Shown here piece by piece: positions 53,293-64,000 of a DNA stretch of 64,000 nucleotides. Each line of letters starts with the position of its first letter. Position 1 is the first letter of the stretch. Under the pieces are notes generated by a model. It was not told the DNA's origin, made no database searches, and worked only from the letters and a program-made list of their open reading frames with translations. The position numbers and the translations under genes were made by a program. The DNA is from a virus. The stretch is taken from IMG/VR virus record IMGVR_UViG_3300042049_000003, positions 5,949 to 69,948 of that record; one strand, given 5' to 3'.

Positions 53293-53322
53293 GTAAAGTC
53301 TGTAGAGAAGAAAGGGAAGAAA

Positions 53323-53757
53323 ATGAATGAAGAGAAAGAACAACGTAAATTAGACGAAGAGTTAGTTATCTCATGCACCTTGGGTCATACGAAAGTTGTT
53401 CAACTCCTCCTCGAAAACAGCGCAGACGTCAACACAACTGATAAGGATGGCAACTCACCCCTACATCACGCATGTTCAAGGGGACATACGGATGTTGTTC
53501 GACTACTCCTTAAAAACGACGCAAACGTCAATGCGATTAATAATGAGGATAACACACCATTATATATCGCATGTAGGTACGGTCATACGATAGTTGTGAA
53601 ACTCCTCCTCGAAAACGGCGCAAACGTCAACACAACTTATGGTAAAGGGTGGTCACCACTACGTATCGCACATTTCCTAGATTATATAGATATAGAAGAT
53701 CTTCTAAAAGTGTGTATCAAGAGAGAAGAGTTTAAAGAGAATAAAGAAAGGAAATAA
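53323..53757 (+). CDS. Ankyrin repeat protein, near-consensus class
   Basis: N-cap EQRKLDEEL, 3-4 repeats, C-cap. Confidence 0.95.
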   Translation: MNEEKEQRKLDEELVISCTLGHTKVVQLLLENSADVNTTDKDGNSPLHHACSRGHTDVVRLLLKNDANVNAINNEDNTPLYIACRYGHTIVVKLLLENGANVNTTYGKGWSPLRIAHFLDYIDIEDLLKVCIKREEFKENKERK

Positions 53758-53758
53758 A

Positions 53759-54487
53759 ATGATTAAAACGAAAGAACAAATTGAATTATATGAAGAGTTA
53801 AGTGTTGCATGTAGAGAAGGTCACACAGATCTTGTTAAAGAACTCCTCCTTAAAAAAGGTGTAGACGTCCACGTGAAGAATAAGTATGGAGAGTCACCAC
53901 TGCTCATCGCATGTTGGTTTGGTCATACGGATGTTGTTCAACTACTCCTCGAAAACGGCGCAGACGTCAACGCGATTAATAATGATAATAACACACCATT
54001 ATATATCGCATGTAGGTATGGTCATACGAAAGTTGTGAAATTACTCCTAGAAAACGGCACATCCATGATGACAATTAATAATGAGTATGGTAACACACCA
54101 TTATATATCGCATGTGTTGAAGGTAATACGGATATTGTTGAATTACTCCTCGAAAACGGCGCAGACGTCAACACGACTGATAAGTATGGCAACTCACCTC
54201 TGAATTTTGCATGTAGTAAGAGCTATATAGATGTTGTTCAACTCCTCATAGAAAACGGAGCAGACGTCAACAAGGTTAATGAGTATGGTGAGACACCACT
54301 GCATCACACATGTTTATGGGGTAAGACAGAGATTGTTAAACTACTCCTAGAAAACGGCGCAAACATCAACACAGTTGGTCAGTATGGCAAAACACCATAC
54401 GATATCGTATATAGGTCGGATGATAGAGAGATCATAAAGCTTCTAGAAGAACACATAGAAAGAGAATCAAGAAAGGAAATAAAATGA
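53759..54487 (+). CDS. Ankyrin repeat protein, near-consensus class
   Basis: 6-7 repeats with LLLENGADVN. Confidence 0.95.
   Translation: MIKTKEQIELYEELSVACREGHTDLVKELLLKKGVDVHVKNKYGESPLLIACWFGHTDVVQLLLENGADVNAINNDNNTPLYIACRYGHTKVVKLLLENGTSMMTINNEYGNTPLYIACVEGNTDIVELLLENGADVNTTDKYGNSPLNFACSKSYIDVVQLLIENGADVNKVNEYGETPLHHTCLWGKTEIVKLLLENGANINTVGQYGKTPYDIVYRSDDREIIKLLEEHIERESRKEIK
53945..53971 (+). repeat. 27-bp sequence shared among ankyrin genes (also 54146-54172 and 63259-63285)
   Basis: CTCCTCGAAAACGGCGCAGACGTCAAC is identical at three sites. Confidence 0.9.
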
Positions 54488-54897
54488 TTGAAGAGAAAGA
54501 ACAACGTAAATTAGATCGAGGGTTAGTTAAGGCATGTTCGAGAGGTCGTTTAGATATTGTTGAATTACTAATTGAAAAAGGCGCAAACATAAACAATGTT
54601 GATGATACCAGCTGGTCCCCTCTACATTATGCATGTTATAATGGTTATACGAATATTGTTCAAGATCTCCTCGAAAGACAGGCGGATATTGAGATTCAAA
54701 CCGAGTGTGGTAGCTCCCCACTACATCTCGCATGTATTGATGGTCATACAGATGGTGTTAAATTACTCCTAGAAAAAGGTGCAAATGTTAACTTGACTCG
54801 TACGAATGGAGAGACACCACTATATGAGGCATATAGGTGGGGTTATACTGATATCATAGAACTTCTAATAGAACATATGAATAAAGAAAGAGGGTAA
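54484..54897 (+). CDS. Ankyrin repeat protein, near-consensus class
   Basis: N-cap nearly identical to that of 53323 (EEKEQRKLD). Confidence 0.95.
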   Translation: MIEEKEQRKLDRGLVKACSRGRLDIVELLIEKGANINNVDDTSWSPLHYACYNGYTNIVQDLLERQADIEIQTECGSSPLHLACIDGHTDGVKLLLEKGANVNLTRTNGETPLYEAYRWGYTDIIELLIEHMNKERG

Positions 54898-54898
54898 A

Positions 54899-56113
54899 AT
54901 GACTATAGAGAAAAAAGAACAAGCTAAATTAGATGAGTTGTTCATTATATCATGTGAATTGGGTAATACTGATCTTGTTCAAGAACTCATAGAAAAGGGT
55001 GCAAACGTTAACATGACTAAGTTGAATGGTCAGAAACCGCTGCATCGTGCATGTTGGAATGGTCATATAGAAGTTGTTAAATTACTCCTTACAAATGATG
55101 TAGATGTTAACGTGGTTAATAAGCAGGGCTACACACCGCTACATATCTCATGTGAATTTGATAATACAGAGATCGTAAAGCTGTTAAAACAGCACATCAA
55201 GAAAATGGATAAAATGACTACAGAGAAAAAAGTTCAAGATAAATTAGGGGTAGAGTTAGCTCAAGCCTGTTTAGAAGGTCATCTGGATATTGTTAAAGAA
55301 CTCCTAGAAAAAGGTGCAAATGTTAACTTGCCTGATAGTAAGGGTCAGACTCCACTGCATATCGCATGTTTTCAAGGTCATACAGATGTTGTTCAACTCC
55401 TCCTCGACAATGGTGCAGATGTTAACGTGACAGGTGGTTTTGGAAGTTCTCCCCTACATATCACATGTTGGCAAGGTCATACAGAGATTGTTCGACTCCT
55501 CCTAGAAAAAGGCGCACTCATAAACGTGACTGATGATTATGACAGCACACCCCTGCATATCGCATGTAACCATAGTTATACCGAGATCATAAAGCTGTTA
55601 AAACAGTACATAAAGAAAGGGTATAATATGGATAATGAGAAAAATAAAAAGTTACTAGATGCATGTTTAAATGGTGATTTAAAGATTATTCAACGACTCC
55701 TTAAAAACGGTGAACATGTCGACACAACTGATGAGCTTGGCTTCACACCACTGCATATCGCATGTTACAATGATAATACAGAGATTGTTCAACTCCTCAT
55801 AGACAACGGCGCAAACATCAACACAGTTGATGAGTATGACGACACACCATTACATAGCGCATGTTTAGAAGGTCATACTAACATTGTTAAACTCCTCCTT
55901 AAAAACGGCGCAAATGTTAACGTTGTTACTAAGGGTGGAAACACACCACTGCATTTCGCATGTTTAATGGGTAATCAGGTCGTTGTTGAGACACTCCTCA
56001 AGAACAGTGCAGACATCAATGTGTCTAATGAGGATGGTAGGTCTCCCCTACATCTCGCAAGTGAGGCAGGTCATACAGAGATTAGAAATCTTTTAGAGAA
56101 CCTTCCTTCATGA
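54899..56113 (+). CDS. Ankyrin repeat protein, apparent in-frame fusion of three gene units
   Basis: Internal C-cap/RBS/ATG junctions at 55214 and 55628. Confidence 0.9.
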   Translation: MTIEKKEQAKLDELFIISCELGNTDLVQELIEKGANVNMTKLNGQKPLHRACWNGHIEVVKLLLTNDVDVNVVNKQGYTPLHISCEFDNTEIVKLLKQHIKKMDKMTTEKKVQDKLGVELAQACLEGHLDIVKELLEKGANVNLPDSKGQTPLHIACFQGHTDVVQLLLDNGADVNVTGGFGSSPLHITCWQGHTEIVRLLLEKGALINVTDDYDSTPLHIACNHSYTEIIKLLKQYIKKGYNMDNEKNKKLLDACLNGDLKIIQRLLKNGEHVDTTDELGFTPLHIACYNDNTEIVQLLIDNGANINTVDEYDDTPLHSACLEGHTNIVKLLLKNGANVNVVTKGGNTPLHFACLMGNQVVVETLLKNSADINVSNEDGRSPLHLASEAGHTEIRNLLENLPS

Positions 56114-62555: not shown

Positions 62556-62675
62556 GTCAAGTCATGTGGAGATCATAAATCTGTACAACAAGTCTGTAGA
62601 CAATCCTACCCACTAAGTGGTACAAGAGGTCTCCTTAAGGTATAAGAAACCTTTGATTTTTAAAGTTAATGTTAT

Positions 62676-62714
62676 AGAGAGTCCATTATGAATAATTTTG
62701 GGCTCTCTTTTTTT
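62676..62714 (+). terminator. Probable intrinsic terminator
   Basis: AGAGAGTCC...GGGCTCTCT stem (one G-U pair) followed by a T tract. Confidence 0.7.
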
Positions 62715-62781
62715 GTATAATTATGCACCTGTATAAAGAGAGAAGTCTACAAGTCTGTAGAGAATAAAGATAGGAAATAAA

Positions 62782-63393
62782 ATGGTTGAAACGAAAGATG
62801 AGAATGGTGACACACCACTGAATCTCGCATGTGCATGGGGTCATATAGATGTTGTTAAAGAACTCCTCGAAAACAGCGTAACCATCAACACAGCTAATAA
62901 GTATGGATACTCACCCCTGCATTTCGCATGTAGAGGAGATCATATAGAGATTGTTGAACTCCTCCTTAAAAACGGAGTAAACGTCCATATGACTGATAAG
63001 TATGAACAGTCACCACTACATTTCGCATGTATGTATAACCATACTGATATTGTTCGACTCCTCCTTAAAAACGGCGCAAACGTAGACATGGTTGATGAGG
63101 ATGGTGGCTCACCACTACACGTAGCATGTGAGTGTGGGCATACGGATGTTGTTCGACTCCTCCTAGAAAACGGCGCAGACATCAACAAGGTTGATACCGG
63201 TGGCTGGTCGCCACTATATTTCGCATGTTTTGAGGGTCATATAGAAGTTGTTAAACTCCTCCTCGAAAACGGCGCAGACGTCAACACAGTTGATAAGTTT
63301 GACCAGACACCTCTGTATATCGCATGTTTATATGGTCATATGGAGATCATAAAACTGTTAGAAGCACACATCGAGAATAAAGATAGGAAATAA
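62782..63393 (+). CDS. Ankyrin repeat protein, near-consensus class (6 repeats)
   Basis: GDTPLNLAC, GYSPLHFAC and similar; ends ENKDRK. Confidence 0.95.
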   Translation: MVETKDENGDTPLNLACAWGHIDVVKELLENSVTINTANKYGYSPLHFACRGDHIEIVELLLKNGVNVHMTDKYEQSPLHFACMYNHTDIVRLLLKNGANVDMVDEDGGSPLHVACECGHTDVVRLLLENGADINKVDTGGWSPLYFACFEGHIEVVKLLLENGADVNTVDKFDQTPLYIACLYGHMEIIKLLEAHIENKDRK

Positions 63394-63394
63394 A

Positions 63395-64000
63395 ATGGTT
63401 GAAACGACTGATGAGAAAGATGATCGCTCACAATTACATCACGCATGTTCAATAGGTCATATAGATGTTGTTAAAGAACTCATCGAAAAGGGCGTAAATA
63501 TCAACACAGCTAATAAGAAAGGATACACCTCGTTACATCTCGCATGTTATGAAGGTCGTCTGATTGTTGTTAAAGAACTCCTTAAAAACGGGGCGAACGT
63601 CAACGTGGTTGCTAAGTATGGAGAGACTCCTCTGCATGAGGCATGTTCGCGCGGTCATACAGAGATTGTTAAAGCACTCATCGACAATAACGCAGATGTC
63701 AACACAACTGATGCGGATGGAGATTCACCACTGCTCACCGCATGTCAGTATAGTCATACGGATGTTGTTCAATTCCTCCTTAAAAACGGAGCAGGTGTTA
63801 ATGTGAAGACTAATGAGTATGGATTTACACCACTGCATGTCGCATGTAAGTGGGGTCATACAGATGTTGTTCAAGCACTCTTCGATAATGGTGCAGATGT
63901 TACTGTGACTAATGAGTATGGCCAAACACCACTACATCTCGCATGTTTAGAAGATCATACTGATATTGTTCGACTCCTCCTAGAAAACGGCGCAAACGTC
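63395..64000 (+). CDS. Ankyrin repeat protein, runs off window end (not in ORF track)
   Basis: ATG 63395 after the junction motif; reads MVETTDEKDDRSQLHHACSIGH...LLLENGANV with no stop to 64000. Confidence 0.92.
   Translation, partial: MVETTDEKDDRSQLHHACSIGHIDVVKELIEKGVNINTANKKGYTSLHLACYEGRLIVVKELLKNGANVNVVAKYGETPLHEACSRGHTEIVKALIDNNADVNTTDADGDSPLLTACQYSHTDVVQFLLKNGAGVNVKTNEYGFTPLHVACKWGHTDVVQALFDNGADVTVTNEYGQTPLHLACLEDHTDIVRLLLENGANV

Follow-up and report, generated by a model that had tools for sequence, protein, structure and literature searches.

Why should the genes of an ankyrin-repeat (ANK) array in a phage genome, together with a gene that encodes no ankyrin protein, carry nearly the same 35 or so nucleotides at the point where one gene stops and the next one starts? 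The question is raised by a 64,000-nt stretch of viral DNA (the window), which covers bases 5949-69948 of the 72,577-bp linear IMG/VR virus record IMGVR_UViG_3300042049_000003 (completeness estimate 68%). The initial annotation regarded the shared sequence as the junction of an integrase-free cassette system in which genes are duplicated, shuffled and captured. We consider it rather more probable that the motif marks the gene boundary peculiar to one ANK family, whose members were amplified in tandem and are coupled in translation; a single capture of a bacterial ietA gene and its later move between phages have to be added to this.

The junction motif in the ankyrin array

The canonical copy of the motif reads GAG AAT AAA GA(A/T) AGG AAA TAA A ATG (G/A)TT (G/A)AA ACG AAA. 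From 5' to 3' it comprises the six final codons of the preceding ANK gene (ENK[D/E]RK), the stop codon TAA, one base, and the ATG of the next gene with its codons as far as M-V/I-E/K-T-K. The Shine-Dalgarno (SD) sequence sits within the A/G-rich tail codons of the upstream gene, and the genes of the young array are separated by 1 nt or overlap in an ATGA (TAAAATG or ATGA at 53757/9, 54487/4, 54897/9, 63393/5, 65002/4 and 65717/9; positions above 64,000 continue the numbering past the window end). Such a layout is typical of translational coupling, and the neighbouring genes are presumably coupled in this manner. Conservation peaks between -12 and +3 around the ATG and extends from -21 to +18. 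The RNA around the motif is predicted to be unstructured (minimum free energy 0 to -6.3 kcal/mol, z >= -1.1). In the promoter test only 9/12 hexamer matches overlap two motif copies, and the promoter-like sites show no excess over shuffles (51 observed, 56.9 expected).

All the copies listed in the initial annotation are present, and the weak ones at 53296, 54880, 55610, 61404 and 61501 are real. Its two identity values could be re-derived, i.e. 35/36 for 59816-59851 versus 53738-53773 and 40/43 for 59809-59851 versus 62754-62796. A 34-nt pattern is found in the window without mismatches at 53738, 59816, 62761 and 63374 and with 3 mismatches at 54463; these 5 matches at up to 3 mismatches compare with an expectation of 0, and none appeared in 100 shuffles. 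At up to 2 mismatches the complete record (72,577 bp) contains the 24-nt core 7 times, always in the ANK array and in 2 cases past the window end, and the SD core AAAGGAAATAAAATG has 8 matches in the window (53311-63397) versus 0.44 expected.

The motif is confined to ANK-array boundaries at 53311 or beyond, i.e. to the younger ANK genes. When the 35 nt 5' of every listed gene were inspected, the core genes had ordinary and varied SD sequences and none of them had the motif; the older ANK genes (46239-53292) and the valyl-tRNA synthetase (ValRS) gene also lack it. A generic ribosome-binding site, which the initial annotation had named as the finding that would overturn its proposal, is ruled out since no core gene start bears the motif. 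The 24-nt core had no exact match in IMG/VR and no match in INPHARED phages.

The two youngest junctions (63343-63407 and 65667-65731) are identical over 65 nt though the genes they belong to are only ~83% identical. This run covers all synonymous sites, so that the conservation is at the DNA level, as the initial annotation had held along with the restriction of the motif to the ANK array. The k-mer census gave an exact block of 35 nt in 3 copies at the junction, and exact blocks of 33-40 nt in 3-4 copies were also seen within the ANK repeats; long ANK paralog pairs elsewhere are at most 83% identical. In other words, conservation at the DNA level is a property of the whole array, with gene conversion or recent duplication as its probable source, and not of the boundary alone.

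The chimeric ATPase gene and its counterpart in a second phage

IetA and IetS are an AAA ATPase and an S8 protease that form a plasmid toxin-antitoxin-like, anti-phage pair (PADLOC models). The non-ANK gene that carries the motif matches the PADLOC IetA models (8e-70) and Pfam AAA, and its alignment keeps GPPGTGKT, FFDEFD and ALFRRFDD, i.e. intact Walker A/B motifs and the arginine block. Its closest relatives are bacterial proteins of 322 aa (75% amino-acid and 78% nucleotide identity) whose genes have an 820-822-aa Peptidase_S8 (S8 protease) gene directly downstream, so they represent ietAS operons. The homology to ietA begins at phage codon 9 (window 59860/1). The N-terminal ~65 residues of the bacterial proteins are absent from the phage ATPase, with MVKTKNVT in their place, and ANK junctions are matched by codons 1-5 and by the 21 nt that precede them. 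The start of the gene is thus ANK-derived, as the initial annotation had held. Its question whether natural IetA homologs lack the MVKTK start is answered in the affirmative, as they have the ~65-aa region instead. The 9 nt that encode NVT (AATGTAACA) were considered as ANK-derived and gave no match. No IetS protease partner is found beside the phage ATPase, both neighbours being ANK genes. The phage copy is therefore like known IetA/IetS systems in its model matches and in its likeness to bacterial IetA encoded beside S8 proteases, and it differs from them as an orphan that has neither the protease nor the N-terminal region and begins with ANK-derived codons.

Judged by its sequence, the ATPase gene is a chimera formed by one non-homologous, in-frame join behind ANK codon 5. 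Independent unitigs from two runs, as well as three further assemblies, span the join between ANK gene, junction and ATPase with no difference in it. The orphan IetA is a candidate decoy or antitoxin mimic directed against a host IetAS. The domestication of a host defence gene by a phage can be followed here to the single nucleotide, the gene having obtained a ready-made ribosome site via an in-frame fusion. In IMG/VR only distant matches were obtained for the ATPase, for one ANK protein and for the major capsid protein, and no third lineage of the ATPase was present in the JGI metagenome scan, where the best match was 56% identical.

Related contigs were found by exact-protein look-ups and form two sets. 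The first comprises seven contigs of the same population, 98-100% identical (among them L013, L021, L022, L108, L109 and L112). The second comprises the seven contigs L014-L020 of a different phage, which encodes a 278-aa ATPase (L014:4894-5730) with the start MANTKNVTGF and a different C-terminal tail. In this second phage the opposite strand encodes PolA, PIF1, RNR, DUF5906 and dUTPase, and the two phages are otherwise unrelated, with only RNR (38% amino-acid identity) and PolA (27%) in common. Besides the block that contains the ATPase gene (Table 1), the other nucleotide match between them is one of 157 nt in the RNR gene. The same samples hold both phages.

Within the shared block the ATPases differ by 15 synonymous and 16 non-synonymous codon changes in 261 codons, and the ANK DNA that flanks the block is 63-75% identical between the phages. 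The truncation and the residues TKNVT are common to both ATPases, which argues for a single fusion event. The chimeric gene would then have moved between the phages, unless a third phage passed it to both. On its left the block begins within the motif (GAATAAA[G/T]AAAGGAAA[-/A]TAAAATGG), with no similarity upstream; the right edge follows ..GEYHV, 25 nt before the ATPase stop, with neither the motif there nor similarity beyond. The link between junction and gene movement that was proposed in the initial annotation is thereby upheld on one side, as a motif-plus-ATPase block that has apparently moved between two unrelated phages with its left edge in the motif, and it fails on the other side, where the edge lies elsewhere.

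The ANK genes of the second phage share the same style of boundary (GAAAGGRAATAAAATG..ACGAAA), therefore the boundary is an old trait of the family. Outside the ATPase, exact matches of at least 20 nt between the two arrays fall into the ANK framework in 49/49 cases (longest 59 nt) and at the junction in 0. The longest of them, 62349-62407 in the window and L014:4343-4401 in the second phage, is set in ~300 nt of 75% identity and may be a recent inter-array conversion tract.

Gene content, individual junctions and strain variation

All genes lie on the + strand, the structural genes first, then a replication/recombination module (SNF2 and DnaB helicases, PolA, RecA, SbcC/D-like proteins, a clamp loader, a 5'-3' exonuclease and RNR) and then the ANK array. 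The array holds at least 22 ANK genes from 46239 to the contig end, and its sole interruptions are the ValRS and AAA ATPase genes. The source runs are labelled mollusc metagenome and come from a single study. No match to PF00589 or PF00239, i.e. no integrase or resolvase, was found in the 72.6-kb record, which is ~68% complete, so that absence from the whole phage is not proven. To this extent the label integrase-free is appropriate, and the RecA and SbcCD-like proteins invoked in the initial annotation are encoded as well; its RuvC was not confirmed, as 30426-30974 matched no family.

The ANK open reading frame (ORF) that follows ValRS begins (58792) within the 3' end of the ValRS gene. The intergenic region 47602-47762 between two older ANK genes contains a G+C-richer unit of ~36 nt (aaaaggcagccacacgcgctgtacaatacctgtagg) in three tandem copies. 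The second phage encodes a HMUDK_hel-family protein (PF18723) and a DCD/dUTPase (L024:4219-5088 and 8838-9305), which hints at modified pyrimidines.

Table 1. Coordinates of the junction copies and associated features in the window.
Feature	Position	Strand	Remarks
Weak junction before ANK gene 53323-53757	53296..53335	+	Ancestral tail VKSVEKKGKK, cut off by an upstream TAA, runs in frame into the ATG
Canonical junction	53738..53773	+	ENKERK tail, TAA, one base, ATG, MIKTK; 35/36 identical to the ATPase copy
Other-frame junction	54463..54496	+	RESRKEIK and stop, ATGA overlap; paralog of the copy at 64983 (past window)
Degenerate junction	54880..54913	+	MNKERG and stop, then MTIEKKEQ
Fossil junction inside a 404-aa ORF	55603..55640	+	In-frame read-through, third frame (..KQYIKKGYNMDNEK..); two former ANK genes fused
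ValRS	56117..58816	+	Full-length; non-ANK cargo inside the array; start without motif
Junction before the ATPase	59809..59851	+	Upstream ANK tail YSV-stop-NKERK-stop; SD, ATG at 59837, MVKTK
Shared block	59817..60621	+	95.8% nt identity to L014:4873-5678 (blastn)
IetA-like AAA ATPase, 269 aa	59837..60646	+	Chimera; codons 1-5 from an ANK start, codons 6-8 (NVT) of unmatched origin
214-aa divergent ANK protein	60727..61371	+	Low-complexity N-terminal half; without motif; absent from the second phage
Degenerate junction without tail half	61404..61435	+	AAAGGAAATAAA, TTG start, SNTKD; array-type ANK genes resume
Fossil junction in ORF 61401-62555	61501..61535	+	In-frame read-through, third frame (..NIKKGNKMINEN..)
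Out-of-frame remnant of an ancestral C-terminus	62556..62617	+	..SHVEIINLYNKSVDNPTH and stop, after the premature stop of gene 61401-62555; read from the sequence
Terminator-like hairpin and U-run	62676..62715	+	-18.2 kcal/mol, z -3.6; then TATAAT; unique in the record
Junction with orphan tail	62745..62796	+	VYKSVENKDRK and stop (62745-62781), no gene upstream, then MVETK
Junction inside the 65-nt exact run	63343..63407	+	Same as 65667-65731 (past window): EIIKLLEAHIENKDRK and stop, then MVET

The motif occurs in three reading contexts, i.e. as the tail of the upstream gene, in a different frame of that gene, or without being covered by an upstream gene. The initial annotation described these correctly, and the deviations from the canonical context have simple causes. 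Before the ATPase, 59806-59835 reads TAC TCT GTA TAG AAT AAA GAA AGG AAA TAA, and the upstream ANK gene ends six codons early because of a single GAG-to-TAG change at 59815-59817. At 54463 the tail is read as RESRKEIK because of a net 4-nt indel just upstream. The orphan tail at 62745-62781 has its own gene cut away by the unique spacer that bears the hairpin, and this hairpin lies in a gap of 226 nt, the one long gap that the young array has. Similar tail fragments bracket the gap (LYNKSVDN at 62590-62612, VYKSVEN at 62745-62766). A repeated mobile element as the nature of the spacer 62600-62765 is ruled out, as it is unique in the record. In gene 61401-62555 a frameshift is followed by a premature TGA, and the ancestral last repeat and tail (..LASESSHVEIINLYNKSVDNPTH and stop) run on in another frame to 62617.

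In strains L021 and L022 the T of the TAA is lost at junction 65698 and two genes are fused into ORFs of 644 and 805 aa. The change is a one-base deletion in GGAAATAAAATG (L022:15880-15900 and its counterpart in L021, equivalent to 65698-65720 past the window) that removes the TAA and leaves the two ANK genes in frame. The fossil junctions at 55603-55640 and 61501-61535 show that the same kind of fusion occurred earlier. The ANK gene boundary is thus a fragile switch at which one-base changes fuse or split genes. The copies read in another frame, those not read and the in-frame fossil copies can be attributed to small frame changes in A-runs that fuse or split neighbours. By fusing or splitting genes, one-base changes at the boundary alter the repertoire of ankyrin binders.

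The seven contigs of each phage (14 in total) were then compared. No whole gene was gained, lost or moved among them, and all structural differences are intragenic changes of repeat number or mosaic tracts. Gains and losses that end at the motif, which the initial annotation had suggested looking for, were not seen in these strains. The one inter-phage block begins in the motif on its left and stops within the 3' end of the ATPase gene on its right, and two mosaic-tract boundaries lie at junctions. L022 differs from the record in about eight patches, which include a 96-nt change of repeat number inside 54899-56113 and short intragenic tracts. Its diverged allelic tract 64684-65000 stops at a junction ATG (65004), and its identity to the record, ~100% as far as ATGGTTGAAACGAA, is only ~88% from 65732 on, a crossover that can be placed only within a ~130-nt identical run ending with the motif. 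Ectopic conversion from a resident paralog was ruled out as the source of the tract 64684-65000 (85% identity at the allelic site, at most 77% for the best paralog). The sole structural variant in the second phage is an intragenic deletion of 183 nt.

Going by its gene sizes, L108 seemed to have lost a whole gene between 63374 and 65698, two identical junctions; this is ruled out because L108 is colinear to 64278. At L108:4413-4560 there is a reverse-complement join to 66123-66270 (past window, 92% identity), probably an assembly chimera at an ANK repeat, which calls for caution in strain comparisons. The joints listed for Logan contigs of four mollusc-metagenome runs, which were considered as signs of junction switching or circles, are short-sided, were called at 90% likeness and are mostly cross-matches between ANK paralogs.

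Competing explanations and related systems

Under the explanation that we favour, i.e. a family boundary with a single ietA capture, copies of the motif would arise by whole-gene duplication that includes the boundary. The copies would stay alike as an unstructured, strong translation-initiation region of young paralogs and through short-tract gene conversion across all ANK DNA. A 5'-truncated bacterial ietA would have been joined once, non-homologously and in frame, to the first five codons of an ANK gene, and selection would have kept this fusion because of its immediate expression. The chimera would afterwards have moved between the ANK arrays of habitat-sharing phages, probably by general homologous recombination, which would act on any short identical ANK tract, the junction included. 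In that event the junction would simply be the nearest homology on the left, and the join on the right would be non-homologous or altered later.

Some of the observations weigh against this explanation. The 65-nt exact run, with every synonymous site included, exceeds what selection at the protein level explains. The ATPase junction differs between the phages at 5/37 nt, versus 4.2% for the body of the ATPase gene, and each ATPase start resembles the local ANK starts (MVKTK versus MIKTK/MVETK in the one phage, MANTK versus MDNTK/MTNTK in the other); the greater divergence and the local-style starts suggest a crossover or conversion inside the junction. Moreover, of about five boundaries of diverged mosaic tracts between strains, two coincide with junctions (65000/65004, and 65732 as a 3' edge), and junctions make up only ~5% of the sequence. 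It is therefore conceivable, if distinctly less probable than the family-boundary explanation, that the junction is a preferred crossover module, i.e. a translation-initiation linker at which general recombination (phage RecA, SbcCD-like) swaps, captures and spreads whole genes among co-infecting phages. The left edge of the inter-phage block, the ANK-like start of each ATPase, the two mosaic boundaries in the strains, the exact run amid ~83% identity, and the encoded RecA and SbcC/D-like proteins in a record where no integrase was found all agree with such a role. On the other hand, only one cargo gene carries the motif and ValRS does not, the shared block ends on the right away from any motif, the variants in the 14 strain contigs are intragenic with no whole-gene indel or reordering, and the inter-array exact matches are located in the ANK framework throughout. 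Crossovers can also be placed only within identical runs (~130 nt for 65732), and the counts of events are too small for statistics.

The broader idea that the ANK boundary serves as a portable site for docking and crossover, ready for expression and common to the ankyrin arrays of unrelated phages of one animal-associated community and a translation-level counterpart of the PeSL elements of T4-type phages, is likewise tentative and is best regarded as a minority reading. If it is true, any gene fused behind codon 5, in this case an orphan IetA of an anti-defence-like kind, would be expressed at once, and plain homologous recombination would afterwards carry it into other phages. If the junction is the preferred crossover point, linker-mediated shuffling of modules would extend from promoter/terminator elements to translation-initiation regions, the general idea being already known. 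The general duplication, shuffling and capture at junctions put forward in the initial annotation finds little correspondence in the data, in which there is one documented capture, non-homologous on its bacterial side, and a second cargo gene, ValRS, without the motif. A dedicated cassette system is not shown, because the motif accompanies 1/2 cargo genes and one edge of the sole mobile block, and no motif-bounded indels were found.

Two further explanations concern the motif as such. The ~35 nt could be an RNA operator, i.e. a common translation-initiation region to which a single RNA-binding regulator or nuclease, of the phage or of its host, would attach much as RegA or RegB of T4 do. The ANK genes and the ATPase would then be co-regulated, and the conservation of the DNA would reflect the binding site. 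The conservation strongest at -12 to +3 around the ATG, the retention of the motif in three reading frames and its decay at the fused copy 55610, where initiation is no longer needed, are in line with an operator. We nevertheless think this unlikely, as recent common ancestry and gene conversion account for the identity without a binding protein and as islands of the ANK framework are equally conserved; no regulator candidate emerged, and no RegA-family gene was found, though the control search was uninformative. An assembly artefact, in which the repeated junction and the ATPase join would be products of a repetitive metagenomic region, might be suspected from the highly repetitive array and from the chimeric-looking reverse-complement join at which L108 ends. 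It is very improbable indeed, since the same joins occur in JGI and ENA assemblies of several samples and since Logan unitigs of two runs bridge 57265-59951 (0 differences) and 55883-59911 (6 differences, none in the junction).

The PeSLs (promoter-early stem-loops), mobile regulatory cassettes of T4-type phages, lie between genes and combine a sigma-70-like promoter with a terminator hairpin; PeSL-bounded indels and mini-circles are documented for them (Arbiol et al. 2010, PMC2839356; Comeau et al. 2014, PMC4122927). Like them, the ANK motif is short, conserved and found repeatedly between non-essential genes in a plastic part of the genome, provides expression signals for the downstream gene and can offer homology for exchange without a site-specific recombinase. 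It is not a PeSL, however, for promoter and hairpin are both missing and the coding sequences on either side extend into it. If it acts at all, it would act at the level of translation, and no motif-bounded indel was found in the strain contigs analysed here. Integron-like or other recombinase-driven arrays differ from the present one, as no tyrosine or serine recombinase was found in the 72.6-kb record (~68% complete).

In lambdoid phages, according to the module theory of Susskind and Botstein, short conserved stretches at gene boundaries permit homologous recombination between otherwise unrelated genomes. The ATPase block common to two unrelated phages is reminiscent of such exchange. The difference is that the homology is supplied here by a multigene family that both phages carry, whose ANK framework offers at least as much of it as the boundary.

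The host-interaction gene arrays of large DNA viruses, ankyrin and others, are tandem families with concerted evolution, gene fusion and gene fission. The array described here has much in common with them, i.e. apparent tandem duplication, probable short gene-conversion tracts, changes of repeat number, and fusion or fission of neighbouring paralogs. The ankyrin genes of WO phage (PMC9203015) are a comparison case for such tandem multigene families. As in an array of paralogs, the motif is confined to the boundaries of one family, the SD sequence lies in the upstream tail, and stop and start are 1 nt apart or overlap. The array is distinguished from these families by its place in a lytic-looking tailed phage of ~100 kb, by its 1-nt spacing and by a captured bacterial defence gene that uses the start of the family.

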